Below the pieces are notes generated by a model. That model made no database searches. It worked only from the letters and a program-made list of their open reading frames with translations, and was not told where the DNA came from. 64,000 nucleotides of DNA from an uncultured cyanobacterium (lineage in GTDB: Bacteria; Cyanobacteriota; Cyanobacteriia; Phormidesmidales; Phormidesmidaceae), in NCBI GenBank assembly GCA_963793265.1, contig CAWBZI010000005.1, positions 224,001 through 288,000 on the forward strand, read 5' to 3'. Within the stretch, counting starts at the first letter, position 1; each line of letters opens with the position of its first letter. Positions 41,432 through 52,759 of this stretch are shown piece after piece. The translations under genes were made by a program, and so were the position numbers.

Positions 41432-42601
41432 ATGAAATTTAAGTTTGGAATAGAGCACGAGGTCGCTTTCCTACGAGCAGATGGACGATTCGCGGACTTT
41501 GAAAATACGTGCTTCGCTGATTTTGAAGATATCGTAGCTGAGCTGCCTCGGTGCGAGCAAGACTATACTCAACTGCGAATCGGTGATGCTGGCATTAAGC
41601 TAAAGCGGTGGTATGTAGAAGGCTTTGAGCGATTCTCTCAGACTGGCGAGATGATTGACTGTCCACCGAAAGGAATTGAGATTAGGACAACTGTGCATGA
41701 TGGGATTGATGAGGCGATCACACAGCTAAAAGAGAGTTTTCATCTACTGCGCACTCAAGCTGCTAAATCAGGATTTACCCCTGCGCTGACCAGTTTCAAC
41801 CCCTATCAAACCGAATTTATTCCTAATCCACCGCTCAATCTTTATGAACAAAAGCGTCGCCGCGAGTCGCCAGAAATGCTAACAGCGCATATCCCGATGC
41901 TTACGCAAGGGCCAGATCTCAACCTTTCAGCAGAAGAACTCACTACCGAAGAACTAATCGATATTGGCCGCAAGCTGACCTATTACAGCCCATTTATTAT
42001 TCCATTTAGCTACAGTTCTCCTTTTTACGAAGGGGAAGTTTGGTCAGGTCTATCTGTACGCACGTTTTATCGTACGGGCGCTAGACCAGCGGCGATGGTG
42101 TTTGTTGAGAATGAGCGTGATTTGATTGACACCGCACCTTCTCTCACGCAAATAGCACGACTGCCTGCTGAAGTAGGTCGAATTGAGTTCAAAGCCTTTG
42201 ATAGCTGTGGCGACTTTAGTCTATACGCTAGCCTATGTGCACTGCTTAAAGGGCTGGTTTTGGACACCACTTTAAAGGAGAGAAGAACGCTACCGGATGC
42301 AACACTTCATCAGCGGTCAGCGCAATTGGGATTTACTGATGAAGAGATTTATCAGCAGGCTATGGAAGTGGTGAAAGCAGCTTATGTTGCATTAGCAGGC
42401 GATCGCGATCAACAGCGATTAATCAGATTAAAAGAATCTCTTCTCGCTCGGCATAGTCCTGCAAAAGATATGCTAGCGGCATACAAATCAGGACACACCA
42501 TTGAACAAATCCTGCGTCAAGGATACGCTACTGTGGGCTCAGCAAATCGCTTCTCAAGAAGCTTTGAAACAGTGAACTTTCTAGAGATCCCTAACGTGTG
42601 A
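41432..42601 (+). CDS. Glutamate-cysteine ligase family 2 (GCS2/YbdK-like) carboxylate-amine ligase
   Basis: FGIEHE, GIEIRT, SSPFYEG, RIEFKAFD. Confidence 0.8.
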   Translation: MKFKFGIEHEVAFLRADGRFADFENTCFADFEDIVAELPRCEQDYTQLRIGDAGIKLKRWYVEGFERFSQTGEMIDCPPKGIEIRTTVHDGIDEAITQLKESFHLLRTQAAKSGFTPALTSFNPYQTEFIPNPPLNLYEQKRRRESPEMLTAHIPMLTQGPDLNLSAEELTTEELIDIGRKLTYYSPFIIPFSYSSPFYEGEVWSGLSVRTFYRTGARPAAMVFVENERDLIDTAPSLTQIARLPAEVGRIEFKAFDSCGDFSLYASLCALLKGLVLDTTLKERRTLPDATLHQRSAQLGFTDEEIYQQAMEVVKAAYVALAGDRDQQRLIRLKESLLARHSPAKDMLAAYKSGHTIEQILRQGYATVGSANRFSRSFETVNFLEIPNV

Positions 42602-42847
42602 TTTAAGCTGCCAGCTCCGATTGAGGATTGAGGCGATCGCCTGACGCGGCATACATACCTGCCTGGTGACGCTCCAAAGCTGAATCGCCTCCGTAGGCGT
42701 ATTAATCATGACCTGTAAGGGTTCAAAGCTTTTGCACTGGGCCTCAATGCCTAGCGACTGTAAACGATGGTAAACTTGCCAGCGGTCTTCGCAGTCAACG
42801 GTTAGCGCAGTGGGCAACTCTGAATTTGTAGCGTGAGATAAAGACAT
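42581..42847 (-). CDS. Asr1405/Asl0597 family protein
   Basis: DRWQVYHRLQSLGI...AIQLWSV...LNRSW motif. Confidence 0.82.
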   Translation of the reverse strand: MSLSHATNSELPTALTVDCEDRWQVYHRLQSLGIEAQCKSFEPLQVMINTPTEAIQLWSVTRQVCMPRQAIASILNRSWQLKSHVRDL

Positions 42848-43286
42848 ATAAGAGAAGTCGCTTGTGCTGACTGTGTGGTGGACTACGGTGAAAAAATAAA
42901 CTGTTTCAAACAATAATGAGAAAAGCTTCTGTTAGCTAAACATAAGTAAATCGTATGACTATAAAAGAATTGTTATCAGTTCCCGATATTAATCACGTCA
43001 TAACTAGAAGATAGTTTCAATAACTAATTTCAATGGATATAAGTTGAAAACGCTTTGAAGTCTTCTTATCAAACCGGTTTGAGCACAAAACTCGCGACTT
43101 TTAATGAGAGTTTGTGTCAATCAGACATCTTATGATCCCTTATTCATCAGTGGTTTCAGACATCTGCAAGCAAGCTATACTGACGCTATGAGGCATCTGA
43201 TATCTATACTGCTGAACGCCTTTGTTGTCTGACATCTCTACTGTTGAGAAATTTCACCCGACGCTAACGATAAGGAACGCTATAAC

Positions 43287-43841
43287 ATGCCTATTTCATC
43301 CGCTGTCATTACACCTTTTGGTCAGGTTGCTGACAACGCTATCTTGCTTGAGAAGACGGTAACCGAGCCGGTTACTGAAGGGTTAAATGTTGCGTTGGCA
43401 AGCCTGCAAGGTCTTTATATTCAATATCAAAAACACCATTTTGTTGTTGAAGGCGCTGAGTTTTACTCACTGCACCAGTTTTTTGAAGAGGGCTACGATG
43501 CAACTAAAGGTCACGTGCACGACATTGGAGAGCGCTTAGATGGCTTGGGCGGCGTACCGGTCGCTAGCTTTTCAAAACTAGCTGAGCTGTGTGCTTTTGA
43601 GCAAGAGCCTGACGGCGTTTTTAGCTGCCGTACCATGGTAGAAAACGACCTAAAAGCCGAGCAGTCTATCATTAAGGTGCTGCGCCGCAATGCGTCTCAA
43701 GCTGAGAGCTTGGGTGATAGAGCCACTCGTTACCTATACGAAGGCATTTTGTTAAAAACAGAAGAGCGCGCCTATCACTTAGATCATTTTCTCGCCTCCG
43801 ATACATTGGTTACCTCCCAGTCGATAGTCAACTTAAACTAG
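43287..43841 (+). CDS. dpsA: Dps family DNA-protection/ferritin-like protein
   Basis: [35 protein letters not shown]. Confidence 0.93.
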
Positions 43842-43856
43842 AGAATGCGTCCCTTA

Positions 43857-43897
43857 CACTAAAGACAGAACACTAAAGACAGAACGCTAAAGATAGG
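43857..43897. repeat. 14-bp tandem repeat (cactaaagacagaa, about 3 units) in the dps 3' UTR
   Basis: cactaaagacagaa cactaaagacagaa cgctaaagatagg. Confidence 0.8.
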
Positions 43898-43960
43898 ATG
43901 GAGCATTACAGGCGCTCTTCATCTGCCTTGTCCAATCTCTACTATTTTGAGTTCCGTATA

Positions 43961-43992
43961 GAGCAGAAGCAATCCGAAGGTTTCTGCTTTTT
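43961..43992 (+). terminator. Intrinsic terminator after dps
   Basis: AGCAGAAGC-aatccgaag-GTTTCTGCT followed by TTTT. Confidence 0.7.
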
Positions 43993-44220
43993 CATTGGCT
44001 GCTCTTCGCTTTTTTCTCTACTTTTCCTAGATAGGAATTGATATCATCAGTCTATTTATAAATCTAGTTGATAACCAATGTCAAGAAGATTTTACGACTT
44101 TGTAAGAAAAAATTTAAGCCGCGCGGTACATGCTAAACCCTTGCTTAAGGAGGATGATAAAGGGATAGGCTTTTTGGCCTGTTAGTTTAGCTGTGTCGGC
44201 TGCGTCGGCATTTTCCGTCC

Positions 44221-44874
44221 ATGACAAAATCTAGTTCCAACCGCTTCAACTGCTCAGGTCGCTTTTTATCCTTTGCTCCGGGTAAAAAGTCTCCTTATCA
44301 GTACGTCGTTTTGGAGGTGGCTTTTGCTAGCAGTGCGCTCAAAAAGCAGGATGCCGATACTCAAAAGTTTCAAGTCAAGCTCGGCAAGTCGCTCAGGCAA
44401 ATGATATTTACCTACCTTGAACCGCACGATTGGGTGAGCGTGGAAGGTAAGTACAAGCTAGATTCGAGCAGTGGTGAGGTGACTTGGAAGGCGAGTGACA
44501 TTATTAAGCTGTCGCCTAAGCAAATAGAAAAGGTGAAGGCCAAAGCGGCCAAGCAGAAATTGAAGGGCGATCGCGCAACGAAAGACCTAGAAAAACAGGA
44601 GAAGAGAGGAAAGTCAAAGCAGAAGTCTGCAAAGCCTGCACGCGTTTTAATCTGTCAGAAGTCTAGCTGTCGCAAGCGCGGGAGTATGGCGGTGAGCCAG
44701 GCGGTTGAGGATGCGCTAGCTGAGATGGGCTGCGAAGATAAGGTGACGGTTAAGCACACGGGATGTATGAGCCACTGTAAGGCGGGGCCCAATGTGGTGG
44801 TGTTGCCGAAGGGGGGAAGCTACAAGCGGGTGAAGCCTAAAGATGCGCGATCGCTCCTCGAAAACGTCGTATAG
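44221..44874 (+). CDS. Thioredoxin-like [2Fe-2S] ferredoxin domain protein (IdiC-like)
   Basis: C-terminal CQKSSC...TGCMSHCKAGPNV; located with dps and a Crp regulator; Fur-like boxes at about 44036 and 44068. Confidence 0.82.
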   Translation: MTKSSSNRFNCSGRFLSFAPGKKSPYQYVVLEVAFASSALKKQDADTQKFQVKLGKSLRQMIFTYLEPHDWVSVEGKYKLDSSSGEVTWKASDIIKLSPKQIEKVKAKAAKQKLKGDRATKDLEKQEKRGKSKQKSAKPARVLICQKSSCRKRGSMAVSQAVEDALAEMGCEDKVTVKHTGCMSHCKAGPNVVVLPKGGSYKRVKPKDARSLLENVV

Positions 44875-44890
44875 CACTCGCGTGTATTTC

Positions 44891-45505
44891 TCACGCTTGA
44901 AATGCACGCCTGTACACAATTTTTTCGCGCTTGCCCCATTTGATTTTATGCTCCTGCTCTAGCGCTTTAAGCAGTCGAGTAACGGTTACGCGCGTTATGC
45001 CAATTGATTCTGAAATCTCTTGATGGGTGAGCTTGATTTGGCTCATATAGTCTCCTTTCTCTAAAGGGCGACCAAATCGTTTTGCAATCCAACAGATAAA
45101 AAGCCGTAGTCGTTGCTCTGCGTTACTGCAATGAGAGATCTGTAGCAGTTCATTAGACTGTCGAATCTGAGAAAGGAGCATGTTGCGAGAGAACGGAGAG
45201 GTAGCGCCTAAGTATTCTGCGGTGACAGCCGAGAGGCACTGCGCTTTGTAGGGGTCGGTTTGTGCGATCGCATACCCCACAACGTCCTTCTCTTGCCAAA
45301 ATCCTAACGGCACAAACTCGCCTTCTGAATCCCAAGTGAGCGTACGCACATAGCCGCTGTGGATCCGCCATAAGCCGTGATTAGGCAAGGCTAAAGACTC
45401 ATGACGCTTAAACTTAAAGATCTTTGGTTGTTGATGAATCTCTGACACCGTAGAGCCAAACATATTAGTGGTAGCAGGTGCAGAGACTGTATTTAGATAG
45501 GTCAT
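44891..45505 (-). CDS. Crp/Fnr family regulator (IdiB-like)
   Basis: LWRIHSGYVRTLTW...LGFW; HTH LTHQEISESIGITRVTVTRLL. Confidence 0.88.
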   Translation of the reverse strand: MTYLNTVSAPATTNMFGSTVSEIHQQPKIFKFKRHESLALPNHGLWRIHSGYVRTLTWDSEGEFVPLGFWQEKDVVGYAIAQTDPYKAQCLSAVTAEYLGATSPFSRNMLLSQIRQSNELLQISHCSNAEQRLRLFICWIAKRFGRPLEKGDYMSQIKLTHQEISESIGITRVTVTRLLKALEQEHKIKWGKREKIVYRRAFQA

Positions 45506-45529
45506 AATCGTGGGTTGAATACGGTGTAC

Positions 45530-46363
45530 TTAATACAGCGGGCTCACTTGAGTGATTAGACGGTTGTTTGAACTTTGATGAGTGATATTGTTTGCTGCGC
45601 TACTGTTTGGATCTATCACATTCTTCCAGTGCTCACGAATTACACTCGCGACAGTTGCAGCATGGTAAAAGTGGAAGAAATGGTTGCCCTGAGGACAATT
45701 CCAACGGCGAAATGATGACGAAGCAGCTTGATCTGAAAGCATCCAGCTATTCCACATTTCTTTGTTTTGAGTGCTGGTGATGGCATCGTGATCGCCATTG
45801 CAAACCAGTACTGGAACGTTCAGGCTGCTAGCAGGAATGCGGGCGTGATGGGCCAAAGAATGAAGCGTAAGGTTGCTGTCTAAGTCTTTTGCGAGCAGTT
45901 GAGAGAGGGCTTTGGCAAATCGAGCGGGCTGCTCTCCAAACAACAGCCGGGTCATTTGGGCCAATACCATCTCTCGGCTACAGGGCAAGAGTTGCCTGAG
46001 CGCGTAGTAGTGAGCCTGCCAGTTAATAGCTGGGCGAGCGGCTACCGATAGCATTGTCAGCGAGGCCACTCGCTCAGGATAGCGACGCGCGTACATCATT
46101 CCTACAATGCCACTGACGCCGTGACCGACTAAGTGAACTTTGTACTGGCTACTACCTGAAGTTCTCTCTAGCTCGCTGCGGCTGTCTAGATAGCCATGTA
46201 GCGCATCTACAACCGCTTCAATAGAGCAGGGTTCATCTATGGTTTGGCAGTATTCCCATCTTCTAATGGGCTCTGTTTTGACAAGCTGCGAGAGCAGCCT
46301 TTGGTCAAAGCCTTTCAGGTAAGGACTTACTGACAGCCAAAGGACATTAGGGTCAGAGGTCAT
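45530..46363 (-). CDS. Alpha/beta hydrolase-fold protein lacking the nucleophile Ser
   Basis: VHLVGHGVSG, YARRYPERV, NGDHD, GNHFFH. Confidence 0.8.
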   Translation of the reverse strand: MTSDPNVLWLSVSPYLKGFDQRLLSQLVKTEPIRRWEYCQTIDEPCSIEAVVDALHGYLDSRSELERTSGSSQYKVHLVGHGVSGIVGMMYARRYPERVASLTMLSVAARPAINWQAHYYALRQLLPCSREMVLAQMTRLLFGEQPARFAKALSQLLAKDLDSNLTLHSLAHHARIPASSLNVPVLVCNGDHDAITSTQNKEMWNSWMLSDQAASSSFRRWNCPQGNHFFHFYHAATVASVIREHWKNVIDPNSSAANNITHQSSNNRLITQVSPLY

Positions 46364-46512
46364 GAATAAAGTTCCGTTGTTTTCTTATTGAATATAAATC
46401 TCGATAGCCGATTGATGCGAGTATACCGTAGATTCCGTTAATAGGAAATACTTTCAATAAAAATTGCAAACCGTTAGCAGATGGATTAGCCAATGAACCC
46501 TATATATCCTTC

Positions 46513-46543
46513 AAAAAAAGCGGCTCCCACAACGGAAGCCGCA
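46513..46543 (-). terminator. Intrinsic terminator of futA
   Basis: Minus strand GCGGCTTCC-gttgt-GGGAGCCGC followed by TTTTTTT. Confidence 0.85.
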
Positions 46544-46585
46544 CTCTTTGGTACAAGATTTTTAATCGTTGTTGCTCTTTAAAAT

Positions 46586-47650
46586 TTATTCCCAGCCCAC
46601 TCTGTCCATGAGCTTAACGGCCTCAGCCTGATTCTCTCCATAGACAGAAACGTTTACAGCATCGTCTTCAAAGGTACCAAACCCTTCAACGACAGGTGCT
46701 AGCGCTACCCCAGGCACCACAGGATATTCGTTGTTGCCCTTTGCAAAGAATTCTTGAGCTTCGGTACCTGACAAGTACTCTAAAAACTGTTGGGCGGCAT
46801 TGGCATTAGGCGCTGAGGCAACCACGCCTGCGCCGCTGATGTTGACGTGCGTTCCTCGGCCCGCTTGGTTAGGAAAGAAGACGCCTATCTTGTCAAAAAC
46901 AGATTGTTTGGCCGCGTCACCTGTGTTGTCGTAGCGGGGTAGATAGTAGGTGTTGGCGATCGCAAGTTCCCCGAGCCCTGCGGCAACAGCTTCGATTTGT
47001 GCGCGGTCATTTCCTTCGGGCGATCGCGCAAAATTACGCACAAGCCCACGCGCCCATGCTTCCGTTTCGGCCAGCCCATTTGTCTCGATCAAAGCAGCCA
47101 CAAGCGACTGATTGTAGATATTATCTGAAGAACGAACAAGAATTTTGTTACGCCATTTTGGATCGGCCAAATCCTCGTAAGTAGATAGATCCGCAGGATC
47201 GACCTTTGTTTTGTCATACATAATCACGCGAGCCCGCTTGGAAAACCCAAACCACTTACCATCAGGGTGGCGCAGGTTTTCAGGGATAGTTTGAGTCAGC
47301 ACAGTAGACGAAACTGGCGCGAATATACCCGCTTGATCAGCTCGCCACAACATGCCAGCATCCACGGTCATAAACACATCGGCCGGACTATTAGCACCTT
47401 CGTTTTTGATCCTTTCAAGCAGCTCATCGGCCTTGCCCTCTAGCAAGTTGACTCGAATTCCAGTGAGATCAGTAAACGTCTCGTATAGCTCGTCGTCGGT
47501 ATTGTAATGACGAGAAGAATAGAGATTGACTTCACCCGTTTGGGCTCCGGGCTGGGCTTTAATCGCACGTGGGCGCAAAACTTGAGTGGCGGCAAAAGCT
47601 GCAGTTGCTGTAGCGCCACGAACTATTAGGGATCGTCGTGAAAGCTTCAT
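46586..47650 (-). CDS. futA: Fe(III) ABC transporter substrate-binding protein, Tat-exported (FutA/IdiA)
   Basis: SRRSLI twin-arginine signal, [34 protein letters not shown]. Confidence 0.95.
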
Positions 47651-47758
47651 AGCGAATCTGTCCTTGTAAATATCGATAAAGTTGAGGGTAATAGCACTCT
47701 ATCACTAATGACATCAATTCTCTTTTAAATATTTTTTTAGCACGGCTGCATAGCAGCT

Positions 47759-47774
47759 TGTATCTGAAGATACA
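47759..47774. promoter_or_regulatory. TGTA-N8-TACA palindrome (NtcA/Crp-family site) upstream of futA
   Basis: TGTATCTGAAGATACA, a near-perfect palindrome about 110 bp upstream of the futA start. Confidence 0.6.
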
Positions 47775-47917
47775 CAGACTCAGGGCGAGAAAATTATTGA
47801 CAAATCCCTTTATTCACAAGCTATCTGCAGTATTTTTTCAGGTGGATAAGTAAGACAGCAGGATCTTTCTTATAAATAACTATTGTCATTAACTAAAACC
47901 TAACATAAGGTTAGACC

Positions 47918-48041
47918 AAGCACAGACAACCTCGCAGACAAAACAGTAGACGCTATCTCACCGAAACTGCACCTACTGTTTGTTTAACAGATGTCCTCTC
48001 AGACAGTGGCCCGTTGCATACTTTTGCAATGGGCTTTTCTT
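47918..48041 (+). ncRNA. Putative Fur-regulated small RNA
   Basis: TTGTCA-17bp-TAAGGT promoter (47883-47911) overlapped by a Fur-like box; internal hairpin; CU-rich segment; plus-strand terminator 48009-48041. Confidence 0.5.
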
Positions 48042-48075
48042 CCGCTTCTCTTCTTTTCTTCTACTTCTTCTTCTT

Positions 48076-48528
48076 CTATATGCGCTGTTGCCTCTCGCTA
48101 CAGTCTTTGCAAATCCCGTATAGCGTTAGCTGACAGTCGAGCACGTGATAGCCTGCCGTCTTCGCTGTTCTCTCTCCAATCTTTGCAACAGAACTTTCTG
48201 CGAACTCTAACGTCGTATTGCAATATACGCACACAATATGGTGATGATCTCGTAGCGGACGATTGAGTTCGTAATGCTTATGGCCTTCGGCTAGCTCTAG
48301 CTCTCGCAACAGTCCCATATAAACCATCAGGTGCAGTGTTCTATAAACAGTCGATAGGCTGATGCGTTCGCCGTCTTGCTCTAAAATATTATGCAAATCT
48401 TCGGCGCTCAGGTGTTCGCCCTGAGTGAGTTCCATGAAGATGCTCAGAACCTTCTTACGCTGAGGCGTCGAACGATATCCGCGAGTATTAAGTTCGGCCT
48501 TGAGGGCTTGATCCGACAGGAAGGGCAT
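48076..48528 (-). CDS. fur: Fur family regulator (second FurA-like paralogue)
   Basis: TPQR, HLSAEDL, LSTVYRTL, HHHIVCVYC, C-terminal CKDC. Confidence 0.92.
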   Translation of the reverse strand: MPFLSDQALKAELNTRGYRSTPQRKKVLSIFMELTQGEHLSAEDLHNILEQDGERISLSTVYRTLHLMVYMGLLRELELAEGHKHYELNRPLRDHHHIVCVYCNTTLEFAESSVAKIGERTAKTAGYHVLDCQLTLYGICKDCSERQQRI

Positions 48529-48852
48529 GATGCATTTCGCATGAACTTAGTAATCATTCTTATTTAGGAGGCCAAAAAGGTCAAGTGATTAAGCCTTATT
48601 TCGACAAAATAAATAGATCCCATTCCTCATAGTGCCTGATTTCAGAATGACTTTCAGCGTATATAAAATCGTTAGAAACTGTGTGGCGAGAGGATTATGA
48701 TTGTCATAGGCTCTGAAAACACTAGCAACTTTTGAAAAAATAATTCGATAGGCTATAGATATTTACTACTGTCTATAGTAGATAATCGATATCAACCCAT
48801 CTATCTATTAAATTGGAATACTTCTCAATCAGATTGTGCGCACTATAAGAAA

Positions 48853-48888
48853 TGCCTTGGACTTTAGCGATCGCTAAAGTCCAAGGCA
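48853..48888. terminator. Perfect 36-bp palindrome centred on HIP1, probably the furA terminator
   Basis: TGCCTTGGACTTTAGCGA|TCGCTAAAGTCCAAGGCA; followed on the minus strand by TTTCTT. Confidence 0.7.
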
Positions 48889-48926
48889 ATAATCAAAACA
48901 CAAATTAATCGCCGAACCCTGAAGCC

Positions 48927-49382
48927 CTAAATCGGCAGAATAGAACGCTGACAGGAAGGACAAACCGCGTGAATAGAAAGCTGGCAGTCAAGTAGCTGAT
49001 ATCCAGATTTCTCAGCGGTTTTTGCCCCGACCTTGAGCACCGAATCGTTTTTGAACTCAATCGTCTTATTACAGCGCACGCAAATAAGGTGGTGATGATG
49101 GTGCGGAGAAGGCTGATTAATTTCGTATCGCTTTTGATCTTCAGCTAGCTCTAGCTCGCGCAAAATACCCATCCGCGCCATCAGCTTAAGATTGCGATAG
49201 ATCGTAGAAAGACCAATCGGTTCGCCCTCGTCTTTGAGCATTCCGCAAAGATCTTCAGCGCTAAGGTGCATACCTTCGGGCAAATTTTGAAACGTCTTCA
49301 AGATAGTTTCGCGCTGGGGAGTCATTCGCCAGCCGCGTTCGTGTAGCTCTGCTTTTAAGGCGGCGGGTGTGTAGGCAACCAT
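48927..49382 (-). CDS. fur: Ferric uptake regulator FurA
   Basis: MVAYTPAALKAELHERGWRMTPQRE, HLSAEDL, HHHHHLICVRC, CPSC; ATG at 49382. Confidence 0.95.
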   Translation of the reverse strand: MVAYTPAALKAELHERGWRMTPQRETILKTFQNLPEGMHLSAEDLCGMLKDEGEPIGLSTIYRNLKLMARMGILRELELAEDQKRYEINQPSPHHHHHLICVRCNKTIEFKNDSVLKVGAKTAEKSGYQLLDCQLSIHAVCPSCQRSILPI

Positions 49383-49397
49383 GAATCGCATCCCCTG

Positions 49398-49490
49398 CGA
49401 AATAATCAATAACGTTATGCTATTGAGAATGATAGCGAATTCACTGACTATTTGCAACAGTCGTTTCTTATTGAGAATAATATCTAAAAA
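49398..49490. promoter_or_regulatory. Tandem Fur-box-like sites upstream of furA (autoregulation)
   Basis: TATTGAGAATGATAGCGAAT near 49421 and TATTGAGAATAATATCTAAA near 49469. Confidence 0.6.
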
Positions 49491-49854
49491 AGATCGGTTC
49501 GCAATAGCTCATACGCTAGCTGAATCCCAGGCAGCTAAAGGGAAAGGTCGATTCGAGGCTAAGGCAAAATGAGTGTTCCAAAATGTTTACACAGGCATTC
49601 CGATACGGCAATATAGTGTGTGAAATCCGCTGATGGGAGTGTGTTTCAACTGCTTTGCCGATAGAGCATCGTAAATAGCAATGTATAGGTTTGTCTGAAA
49701 ACGCTCAGAAGCTTTGAAAGCCTGAAATCATGGCGATTGATGATTGATTTTTTGAGACATTCGCAGTACTATTAGCGGGAGCAAATCCCAATTAGGCTTA
49801 TCGCTTTATTTGAATTTGCTGTAACTTCGTGTTTTGAGAGCCAGGCAACGTTTT

Positions 49855-50133
49855 ATGGACAATGCAGGTTTTGAGAGTGCTCGTTGGGATCATTGGCTGC
49901 TGGTGGCGTGCTTTTTGGCGATAGCAACCTCTGGCCTCTGGCTCTCGTGGCAATGGACTCAGGCTGAGCGGCAGCAGCGTAAAAAGTCGAGGCTAGCGCG
50001 TCGCCTGGCGATGGAGGTGCATCCTTTGGAGTCGCGATCGCACTCAGGCCGCTATTCGTCTGGGTATTCGTCTCAAAGAAGCCTGGCTTCGGCGCAATCA
50101 CATTCCCGACAGGGTGGTTCGCATCGTCAGTAA
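49855..50133 (+). CDS. Small single-TM hypothetical protein
   Basis: One Trp-rich TM helix followed by a basic/Ser-rich tail; co-oriented with the TonB-like gene and futB. Confidence 0.5.
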   Translation: MDNAGFESARWDHWLLVACFLAIATSGLWLSWQWTQAERQQRKKSRLARRLAMEVHPLESRSHSGRYSSGYSSQRSLASAQSHSRQGGSHRQ

Positions 50134-50168
50134 ACAGTAGGCATTCAAAAAAATCAGCAGAAAGCAAC

Positions 50169-50966
50169 GTGCAAATTCAAAAGCCAAAGCATTTGTTTTG
50201 GAAGATAGTCTTAGTGTCTTTGGCAGCGCATAGTTTGTTGCTTCTATTGCCGTGGTACAAACCGTCTGTAGATAGTGAGGTGTCAGACAGCGCCCAGGAT
50301 GCGGTAGAAACGGTTGCGGAAGAGAGTGCGATCGCTATCAGCACCCTCCCAACTTCTTCACAGTCAGGTACTCCGCCATCAAAGCCTCAATCTCAACCTG
50401 CTGCTCCGCCATCACCCACCACTGCACCACCTGTACCATCGGTTGCCGAACCGTTGCCGCAGCCTATACCGCAATCCATCCAGCCGCCAGTTCAGCCACA
50501 GCCAGTTCAACCACAGCCAGTTCAGCCACAGCCAGTTCAAGAGCTACCTATTCAGCCAACCCCCGTTGAGCAGCAAGTGATTGAGCGGCCTACTGAATCG
50601 ATAGCTTCAACACCAGATGACAGCATGGTTGTACAGCTGGGCGAGAATTTTCCTCATCTTTTAGGCGCGCAGTCCGGGTGCTACAACCTGGAAAGCTGTC
50701 ACCGGATCACAGGCGAAGGCACCCATCGGCAGGCAGCGAAAAAACTGATTGAGCAGATGCGACAGCAAAACTATCAGGTAGTTGAACGCGATGACATTGA
50801 GAGCCAGGGGCATCAGGTGTTTGCCGTTACGCCACCGCAAGAGCCTGATAAAACCTACTATCTCAACGTTTTTTCGGACAGCTTGAATAGTGCAGTCTAC
50901 GCAATCACGCTAGAGATTGTAAGCCTTGCAGAACTCAAGCAGCTCAGCGGCCAAGCGGCGCTATAA
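50169..50966 (+). CDS. Membrane-anchored proline-rich protein (TonB-like architecture)
   Basis: N-terminal TM with SxxxH (VSLAAHSLLL), Pro/Gln-rich linker, globular C-terminal domain. Confidence 0.7.
   Translation: MQIQKPKHLFWKIVLVSLAAHSLLLLLPWYKPSVDSEVSDSAQDAVETVAEESAIAISTLPTSSQSGTPPSKPQSQPAAPPSPTTAPPVPSVAEPLPQPIPQSIQPPVQPQPVQPQPVQPQPVQELPIQPTPVEQQVIERPTESIASTPDDSMVVQLGENFPHLLGAQSGCYNLESCHRITGEGTHRQAAKKLIEQMRQQNYQVVERDDIESQGHQVFAVTPPQEPDKTYYLNVFSDSLNSAVYAITLEIVSLAELKQLSGQAAL
50481..50540 (+). repeat. 15-bp coding tandem repeat (QPQPV-like, 4 units)
   Basis: cagccgccagtt cagccacagccagtt caaccacagccagtt cagccacagccagtt. Confidence 0.85.
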
Positions 50967-51031
50967 CAGTGCTTCTACTATTGCTTTAGACTATTAGGAA
51001 CGATTATCAAACGATTCCATCGCGTTAGTAT

Positions 51032-52759
51032 ATGCCTCGCCTCAGCTCTCTTACCCCTGCTCAAAAAGACGCTAAGTATGGAGCTGAACGAAGCCAGAAA
51101 TCTCGCGTTTGGGATCGACTGAGCGCTTTGCCGAATGGCTGGGCGATCGCAACCTGGATCACCGCCGCCCTAGTCTTCCTCCCAGTATTAGTCGTTGTCG
51201 GCAGCGTGTTTGCCGATGCCGGAGAAATATGGGCACATCTAGCCGATACCGTGCTGACTACGTATGTGACAAACTCGCTTCTATTAATGGTGGGCGTGGG
51301 CATAGGCGTATTAGTCATTGGCGTAGGCACTGCATGGCTGGTGACCATGTGTCAGTTTCCAGGGGCGCGCATTTTTGAGTGGGCTTTGCTGCTGCCATTA
51401 GCTGCGCCTGCTTATTTGCTGGCCTATACCTATACAGACTGGCTGGAATATTTTGGCCCGGTGCAGACGGGACTGCGATCGCTCTTCGGCTGGGAAAGCG
51501 CCACCGACTACTGGTTTCCGAACGTGCGATCTATCGGCGGGGCGATTGCGATGTTTTCGCTCACCCTCTATCCCTACGTCTACATGCTGGCCCGAGTTGC
51601 TTTTTTAGAACAGTCTGTATGTACGCTCGAAGCCAGTCGCTCATTAGGCTGCGGCCCGTGGCGAAGCTTTATAAAGGTGGCTGTTCCCCTAGCGAGGCCC
51701 GCTATTGCTGCCGGGCTTTCCTTGGCCCTCATGGAAACGCTGAACGACTTTGGCACGGTGCAGTATTTCAGCGTAGCGACCTTTACCACAGGGATTTATC
51801 GAACGTGGTTTGGTATGGGTGAGCGGGTGGCGGCAGCTCAGCTATCGGCCATGCTGATGCTATTTATTTTTGTGCTGATTCTATTAGAGCGCTGGTCGCG
51901 GCGGCAGGCCAAGTATTATCAGGCGAACAATAGCTTGCAAACGCCAACAGCTTATCGGCTCGGCTTTTTTCGCGGCTGGCTCGCGACGTTTGCCTGCGCG
52001 CTGCCGATTAGTTTAGGTCTACTTGTGCCTGGCTTGCTGCTAGGGCTTATGGTCAAAGCTAATTTAGACGATGCGTTGGATAATCGATTTGGGGAGCTAG
52101 CCAGCAATAGCCTGATCTTGGCTGGGATGACCGCAGCGATCGCCCTGGTCATTTCCCTCATCCTCGCTTACGGACAGCGGCTAGACGGCTCTGGCCCAAT
52201 TCGTTTAGGCGTACGGCTCTCAGCGATGGGCTACGGCATTCCGGGCGCGGTAATTGCGGTGGGTATTTTAATTCCGGTGACGCGGTTGGATAATGCGATC
52301 GCCAATGGTGTCAAAGCTATCTCCGGCAGTTCACCCGGTCTACTAATCAGCGGCACCATCACAGCGCTAGTGTTTGCCTACCTCGTCAGATTTCTCGCAG
52401 TCGCACTGGGCTCCGTCGAATCTGGCCTGTCAAAGATTAGGCCGAACTTGGATGATGCGGCTCGCAGCTTAGGCTATACGCCGACCAAAACGCTGATCAA
52501 GATCCACACGCCGCTAATGACGAGCAGCTTACTGACGGCAGTGATGCTGGTATTTGTAGACGTGATGAAGGAGCTGCCCGCGACCCTCGTTATGCGACCC
52601 TTTAACTTCGATACGCTGGCAGTTCGGGTTTATCAATATGCTTCAGACGAACGCTTAATTGAAGCAGCAGCCCCAGCCCTGACCATTTTGCTTGTGGGGT
52701 TGTTGCCTGTGATTGTCCTAAGCTGGCAGATTACACAAAGCCGCCGAACCAGTCGATAG
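51032..52759 (+). CDS. futB: Fe(III) ABC transporter permease
   Basis: LLLPLAAPAY, EASRSLG, METLNDFGTV, MKELPAT; two EAA-type halves; Fur-like box near 50991. Confidence 0.93.
   Translation: MPRLSSLTPAQKDAKYGAERSQKSRVWDRLSALPNGWAIATWITAALVFLPVLVVVGSVFADAGEIWAHLADTVLTTYVTNSLLLMVGVGIGVLVIGVGTAWLVTMCQFPGARIFEWALLLPLAAPAYLLAYTYTDWLEYFGPVQTGLRSLFGWESATDYWFPNVRSIGGAIAMFSLTLYPYVYMLARVAFLEQSVCTLEASRSLGCGPWRSFIKVAVPLARPAIAAGLSLALMETLNDFGTVQYFSVATFTTGIYRTWFGMGERVAAAQLSAMLMLFIFVLILLERWSRRQAKYYQANNSLQTPTAYRLGFFRGWLATFACALPISLGLLVPGLLLGLMVKANLDDALDNRFGELASNSLILAGMTAAIALVISLILAYGQRLDGSGPIRLGVRLSAMGYGIPGAVIAVGILIPVTRLDNAIANGVKAISGSSPGLLISGTITALVFAYLVRFLAVALGSVESGLSKIRPNLDDAARSLGYTPTKTLIKIHTPLMTSSLLTAVMLVFVDVMKELPATLVMRPFNFDTLAVRVYQYASDERLIEAAAPALTILLVGLLPVIVLSWQITQSRRTSR

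Follow-up and report, generated by a model that had tools for sequence, protein, structure and literature searches.

The window analysed here, a stretch of 64,000 nucleotides of DNA from an uncultured cyanobacterium, carries between two iron-related genes a short region with the marks of a small transcription unit, and the question is whether this region specifies a regulatory RNA of iron starvation and, if it does, to what that RNA is related. The earlier note had proposed a Fur-controlled RNA of about 125 nt, either a divergent form of the cyanobacterial RNA IsaR1 or a new family. IsaR1 of Synechocystis sp. PCC 6803 was reportedly described by Georg et al. in 2017.

The locus and its coding content

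The immediate neighbours of the element (Table 1) are the divergent ABC binding-protein gene, which we take to be futA/idiA, and two Fur-family genes; idiB and isiC are likewise names that we presume for neighbours. The divergent gene has a Fur-like box of its own near 47705 (score 13.4). The surroundings form an iron-stress cluster (42581-52759) with an Asr1405-family gene, dpsA (over cut-off), a 2Fe-2S protein, a Crp-type regulator, an alpha/beta hydrolase, a binding protein, the two fur genes and an ABC permease, and besides the box near 47705 further Fur-like boxes lie near 47794, 48798 and 49442. Between the terminator and the stop codon of the fur paralogue there is a pyrimidine run of TCT/TTC units (48036-48080).

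The view that no credible protein gene lies on the plus strand holds. A 91-codon ORF from 47991 was rejected as a gene, its matches (32-55% identity) running mostly through the stretch antisense to fur; among the 20 matches listed, three were the window locus itself and most of the other 17 fell in the fur-antisense part.

Table 1. Features of the element and its neighbours (window coordinates).
Feature	Position	Strand	Remarks
Divergent ABC substrate-binding gene	46586..47650	-	ORF; sub-cut-off ABC binding-protein matches only
Predicted Fur-like box over -35	47870..47892 (19-mer 47873-47891)		Orthologous to the box of relatives' isiA-family promoters
Putative sigma70-type promoter	47883..47911	+	-35 TTGTCA 47883-88, 17-nt spacer, -10 TAAGGT 47906-11
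Likely first bases of former isiA 5' UTR	47914..47929	+	14/16 identical to start of L120 leader
Predicted RNA, about 124 nt	47918..48041	+	Deduced from promoter and terminator; start 7 nt after -10
Hairpin	47941..47981 (arms 47941-49, 47973-81)		Not conserved; may act as terminator of minus-strand fur paralogue
Conserved motif TCCTCTCAGACA	47994..48005	+	First 7 nt equal 3' half of IsaR1 seed
Intrinsic terminator	48009..48041 (arms 48009-18, 48025-34; U tract to 48041)	+	Orthologous to relatives' isiA terminator
Convergent Fur-family paralogue	48076..48528	-	Fur-family matches below cut-off; orthologues present in genus

Promoter and predicted transcript

The Fur-like box that had been read over the -35 hexamer is confirmed at the level of a predicted site, with a score of 11.9 that is equalled or exceeded at 76 of 11.36 million genome positions under a matrix which, built from 20 IsaR1 promoters, includes the -35 hexamer and cannot separate a Fur box from a promoter. 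It resembles the IsaR1 box, placed at -33 in the portion of the PMC8634477 supplement used here; the published IsaR1 Fur box itself, scanned against genome contigs, gave no match. The two promoter hexamers proposed earlier stand at the positions given for them, and their spacing is common to 26 other promoters of the genus. The match to the consensus covers 8 of 12 bases, falls below the threshold of the consensus scan and is absent from its list, and the support for the promoter comes from conservation. The sequence AAGC occurs at the offset of the predicted start in many isiA-linked promoters, and the resemblance of the following bases to the L120 leader has an E value of 2.0, which is not significant alone.

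The plus strand of 47915-48045 folds with a z-score of -3.97, matched by none of 200 shuffles, and the minus strand with one of -2.22, matched by 5 of 200. The G-U pair of the terminator had been said to work on the plus strand only, and the predicted energies agree with a terminator on that strand (-19.2 kcal/mol on the plus strand versus -13.4 on the minus strand, which has no U tract); the terminator scan also lists it on the plus strand, and in the family 8 of its 10 pairs are altered on both sides, a covariation score reached by 0 of 500 shuffles. The long hairpin described upstream has its arms where they were placed, with energies of -14.5 on the plus and -18.1 on the minus strand over slightly different spans, but it is not the conserved part: the best counterpart that blastn found in 22 isiA loci had an E value of 0.56. 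The CU-rich stretch at 47987-48000, said to be unpaired, is in part as claimed, CUCUC being predicted open (0.79-0.96 unpaired) and the preceding UGUC paired. Covariation was sought in the small TGTC/GACA helix around the seed and none was found, and an Rfam search of 47300-48600 returned no match at E up to 10.

A family of related elements

A DNA search of 60 relatives gave short matches only, four of them at the promoter, and behind those relatives' promoters, at variable distance, stood TCCTCTCA(A)GACA and a terminator. Promoter, motif and plus-strand terminator recur in 24 of the 46 genomes of the genus, the window copy of the motif being one A shorter than the family form. From the copies of 22 relatives, with the window copy excluded, a covariance model (R2) was made; it finds 47982-48041 at 44.4 bits (E 2.7e-12) as its sole match in this genome. 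Within the genus it yields 32 matches of at least 44 bits in 25 of 46 genomes, 22 of these being the copies from which the model was built; one match (G064) is without the seed. Matches outside the genus are weak, at 30.5 bits at most. The seed columns of the R2 alignment are invariant and are unpaired in the consensus. At a separate locus (L136:1501-1543) the family terminator occurs without the seed after the end of a different isiA-family paralogue. The element is real and conserved, and it likely works like IsaR1 while not being a member of that family.

Origin from an isiA-family gene

Most copies of the family form the 3' end of a gene for an isiA-family chlorophyll-binding antenna protein (TIGR03041 over cut-off). 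When isiA orthologues were chosen by protein similarity and not by the motif (21 over 620 bits plus one fragment), all 22 had the motif directly before the terminator, 21-117 nt past the stop codon, as exact TCCTCTC after 18 and as a close variant after the other four; the remainder of the 3' UTR cannot be aligned among them. Upstream of 19 of the 22 there is a TATTGYCAWT box, and of the three others one lies at a contig end, one has 325 nt of flank and one has the DNA but no match. The window has no ORF between promoter and seed, and an isiA orthologue of this type was sought in this genome and is absent; the best isiA-type matches there are two psbC-like genes and a paralogue at 55% that follows two phycobiliprotein-like ORFs. 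The orthology of both ends shows the window element to consist of two parts of an isiA-family gene whose ORF is missing here, the promoter and the end with seed and terminator, a relation that the earlier note had not recognised. The spread of the isiA-linked state over the sister genera indicates that it came first in the family.

The isiB-type flavodoxin gene of this genome occurs only in a 5'-truncated form, reduced to its last 75 codons directly after a 1,071-aa ORF (G000:C2:374548-377998), and a strong Fur-like box lies in the same region at C2:379497. In several loci isiB follows the motif and terminator (L049, L062, L079, L081), including two ORF-less ones (L049, L062), in which the copy immediately precedes a flavodoxin gene of the same orientation and the RNA would also be a leader with a terminator before isiB. 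In G370 a second antenna-family gene ends with TCCTCTCAA and a terminator, and a ferredoxin-like ORF follows (L155:1501-1567).

The position beside the fur paralogue invites another reading, in which the main job of the RNA would be cis-antisense control of that gene, whose mRNA would reach the hairpin at 47941-47981 and overlap the RNA by about 100 nt. The fur stop codon lies 35 nt from the predicted 3' end, the 5' hairpin is predicted to be more stable on the minus strand, and other cyanobacteria have an antisense RNA to furA, according to the part of PMC6202907 drawn upon. The convergent arrangement is, however, also found in isiA-linked copies with the ORF present, and the layout is therefore inherited gene order and not evidence of antisense control; many copies, moreover, retain the seed without any fur neighbour, and perfect antisense pairing would not require the seed to be conserved. 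We regard a primarily antisense role as very improbable.

Relation to IsaR1

The suggestion that the element is a divergent IsaR1 is not supported by either a covariance model or the full seed. From the IsaR1 sequence given in the consulted portion of the PMC8634477 supplement, homologues were fetched by seed motif and a second covariance model (R1) was made from 21 of 30 loci, six being left out as chance or atypical matches and three as identical rows. Run against the element, a check that the earlier note had proposed, R1 gives no match at E up to 10. The two models cross-match weakly, R1 with 7 of the 22 family copies at E 0.022-9.9 and R2 with IsaR1 loci at E 0.11-10. The full IsaR1 seed, AGTGTTCTC(C/T)TCTC, is absent from the element, which has only its last 7 nt in common, and a search of this genome with one mismatch allowed found no copy of it. 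The seed motif is present in 112 of 301 genomes of the class and in none of nine of this genus. Canonical IsaR1 was found neither in this genome nor in any of 37 genomes of the genus; under stricter filters R1 finds it in 6 of 150 family genomes, and in the two genera whose 3' seed is clearest it was found in 0/22 and 0/39 of the genomes searched.

In the sister genera the isiA 3' ends carry longer parts of the IsaR1 seed. Among 56 such ends (one of 57 genomes was left out for internal stops, as were three weaker paralogue matches), at least 8 contiguous seed bases occur in 44, at least 9 in 41 and at least 10 in 35, the longest stretch being 11; in two large genera at least 8 seed bases stand right before the isiA terminator in 16/16 and 20/20 cases. 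The background over 5,254 ORF ends of this genome is 1.1% for at least 8 bases and 0.25% for at least 9, and the reverse strand of the same isiA 3' ends gives 0/56. Of 66 more distant isiA loci, 12 have at least 8 seed bases, mostly of the 5' half and in a Pleurocapsa-like group. Among 30 hand-picked distant genomes, none of the 13 with a clear 3' seed gave an IsaR1 match, as against 11 of 16 others, which is a pattern and not a test, since 12 of the 13 come from a single lineage and the completeness of the genomes is not given; L254, L275, G211 and G314 have a 3' seed as well as IsaR1.

Several loci show further arrangements. In the Pleurocapsa-like group (L250, L257, L258, L262, L271, L273, L274, L288, L289, L303, L304 and L308) the 5' half of the IsaR1 seed lies after the isiA stop codon, just before the terminator, and canonical IsaR1 was not found in these genomes. 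Six entries titled Okeania (L284, L285, L292, L297, L300 and L312, about 447-551 on the minus strand) have a diverged IsaR1-like RNA (E 0.05-0.09) that carries a Fur-type promoter of its own and stands about 950 nt upstream of isiA, on the other strand, and the box there contains the same TTGTCATTAA word as the window box. IsaR1 homologues of genus g34 (L162, L163 and L165, 1440-1561) carry about 30-40 extra nucleotides at the 5' end, between promoter and seed, and at L309:1383-1467, in a genome without a canonical IsaR1 match, the TCCTCTCAA word and a hairpin occur in the isiA leader and not behind isiA.

Copies without the reading frame

Eight ORF-less copies, including that of the window, have 58-159 nt between box and seed and retain promoter, seed and terminator, an observation that is partly circular because the copies were found by the motif. 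An intermediate state is seen at L017, where the promoter is followed by an isiA that is frameshifted and has two internal deletions, and then by the motif. Within the genus, four genomes have an ORF-less copy only and five have both kinds, and 21 of 46, several of them near-complete, have neither isiA orthologue nor element. Three ORF-less copies have a common junction, and two fur genes show differences among them at 16-26% of fourfold sites; the copies are identical at 13/13 seed columns (a figure inflated by their discovery through the motif), at 57/70 columns from promoter to seed and at 26/35 terminator columns, and at 43/106 columns of the upstream flank. In terms of aligned columns, the seed of these ORF-less copies is shown to be conserved while the flanks are not.

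In a tree of promoter and terminator, from an alignment of about 135 columns with one row lacking the promoter, the L017 remnant joins one isiA copy (99) and the three copies with the shared junction join that pair (94); the window copy is left unplaced, and a single clade for all eight ORF-less copies is not rejected (p-AU 0.086). Independent origins are suggested by the differing junction lengths and neighbours.

These comparisons bear on whether the element does anything at all. It might be a relic, the isiA ORF having been deleted and its two ends left behind, perhaps still transcribed in low iron but functionless. This would fit the loss of this isiA type from the genome and the truncation of its isiB, the 21 genomes without the element, the unconserved 5' half and the seed that in the window is one base short; yet the three related ORF-less copies have kept seed, promoter boxes and stem pairing despite a diverging flank, and in the window the box, the -10, the core of the seed and the stem are all intact. 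A functionless remnant is, in our view, unlikely.

Predicted targets

Potential targets were sought by scanning the 15-nt seed against 5,254 leaders, with gene starts from a crude ORF caller and three iron genes unmapped; a first scan with a 27-nt query had been dominated by bulged duplexes and was replaced. Of 67 iron-protein genes, 10 lie within the top 5% of predicted sites (Fisher p 0.002), as compared with an average of 4.2 for 45 shuffled seeds, none of which reached 10, with 5 for the anti-SD and with 9 for the IsaR1 seed. Of the ten, the sufB match belongs to an internal start that was mis-called, as may one other, and with eight matches p becomes 0.024; at the true sufB starts a site was sought in four genomes and was absent from all four. 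The iron set as a whole shows no shift in predicted sites (AUC 0.49, p 0.39). High ranks are held by a PetC-like Rieske gene (2), nifD (7), a second petF (49), sufD (70) and acnB (119). The main petF of this genome pairs over 7 bases only and ranks 920 of 5,254, and main petF leaders carry AGAGGAT in 5/5 genomes of the genus. In three of five other genomes one petF leader pairs best with the seed of its own genome, and the Pleurocapsa-like one has no such fit. Across 30 genomes the Rieske site does not track the element, being just as strong in some without it and weak in many with it, and a compensatory one-base indel in that site was sought and not borne out. GAGAGGA is in any case a common ribosome-binding site in this genome, and no PF02777 match was found in it. 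The leaders targeted by IsaR1 are those of petF, sufB, sodB, petJ, petABDC and acnB, as listed in the part of PMC8136909 consulted. The target evidence for the element is modest.

Proposed function

The reading that we prefer, with a probability of about 0.58, is that the element specifies a Fur-repressed RNA of some 124 nt, freed from the isiA 3' UTR and likely doing the iron-sparing job of IsaR1. Iron-loaded Fur would sit over the -35 and be released when iron runs short; the exposed UCCUCUC would then pair with GAGAGGA ribosome-binding sites and block translation of mRNAs for iron proteins, with the leaders of ferredoxin, Rieske protein, nitrogenase and aconitase as candidates. In the relatives the same seed would act from the 3' end of the isiA mRNA, either after processing into a fragment or while still part of the full-length message. 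Once the ORF had been deleted, a stand-alone RNA would have remained, and selection may have kept it in this lineage, in which the searches gave no canonical IsaR1.

The CU-rich motif could instead be a cis element of the isiA mRNA, serving protein binding, processing, stability or control of read-through into isiB, with its likeness to IsaR1 due to a shared RNA-binding partner or to chance and the ORF-less RNA at most a decoy. The motif does stand at the mRNA 3' end of every orthologue, isiB comes next in several loci, R1 and R2 match each other weakly, and the protein Rbp3, in the portion of its report considered (10.1101/2024.07.09.602696), binds 3' ends of photosynthesis mRNAs and enriched an isiA-isiB spacer transcript. 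The Rbp3 motif given in that portion is UUNGN, however, and not CU-rich; sister genera have up to 11 contiguous bases of the IsaR1 seed, and the core of the motif is an exact complement of petF leaders, one of which fits its own genome's seed best in three of five genomes. A purely cis-acting motif seems to us quite unlikely.

Around the preferred reading of a freed, trans-acting RNA a broader history can be drawn, which we offer tentatively and with the odds somewhat against it. The function of IsaR1 would have moved into the 3' end of the isiA mRNA in the whole family and, separately, in the Pleurocapsa-like group, so that one Fur-controlled transcript would both build the iron-stress antenna and silence iron-costly genes; in the genus, deletion of the ORF on more than one occasion would have yielded new free-standing sRNAs, with all three stages extant. 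IsaR1 itself may have begun from an isiA 3' end, or may instead have been captured by one or have converged on the same target site.

If the proposal is true, the missing iron-sparing regulator has been identified for a large cyanobacterial family whose genomes mostly gave no match to canonical IsaR1, and isiA, among the best-studied iron-stress genes, becomes a candidate dual-function transcript. Full gene, half-deleted gene and free RNA would be three stages that can be compared within one genus, and the element suggests, from its sequence relationships, how the end of a messenger RNA can give rise to a regulatory RNA. That bacterial sRNAs may arise from mRNA 3' UTRs is an idea stated in PMC8136909, in the section used.

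Comparison with known systems

The literature covered contains no description of an IsaR1-type seed at an isiA 3' end or of this RNA; some of these isiA 3' copies may be listed as IsaR1 in the supplement of PMC12873609 or in Georg et al. 2017, which fall outside that coverage. The part of PMC12873609 that was used gives 108 IsaR1 matches in 202 genomes, and further literature on the topic, likewise drawn on in part, comprises PMC7154689, PMC7247011 and PMC7760821.

Like IsaR1, the element has a predicted Fur box over the -35, an intrinsic terminator and a CU-rich seed, with TCCTCTC and the following AAG in common, and it likely follows the same iron-sparing logic. Unlike IsaR1, it is without the 5' half of the seed, has a different terminator and derives from the isiA transcription unit. 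The seed is also placed differently, about 76 nt behind the putative start of the 124-nt RNA in the element and at the 5' end of a 62-73 nt RNA in IsaR1; in three ORF-less relatives the predicted RNA is about 70 nt long with the seed about 22 nt in. With RyhB the comparison is functional only, as a Fur-repressed iron-sparing RNA, and no common ancestry is claimed.

The isiA/isiAB operon with its monocistronic isiA transcript, as treated in the parts of PMC3516471 and PMC8634477 consulted, likewise has a Fur-type promoter, and its transcription drops past isiA; those parts describe no seed or sRNA at the isiA 3' end, and the antisense RNA IsrR lies inside isiA. With ApcZ (PMC8136909, in part), CpxQ and DapZ the relatives' seed has in common that it shares a terminator with an mRNA, a trait of the 22 isiA-linked copies that is absent from the window, and the RNA would in the same way couple the making of one protein to the repression of others. 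Unlike RNAs of the ApcZ/CpxQ type, the window element has lost the mRNA part, and its 3' end would be transcribed straight from the promoter of the former gene.
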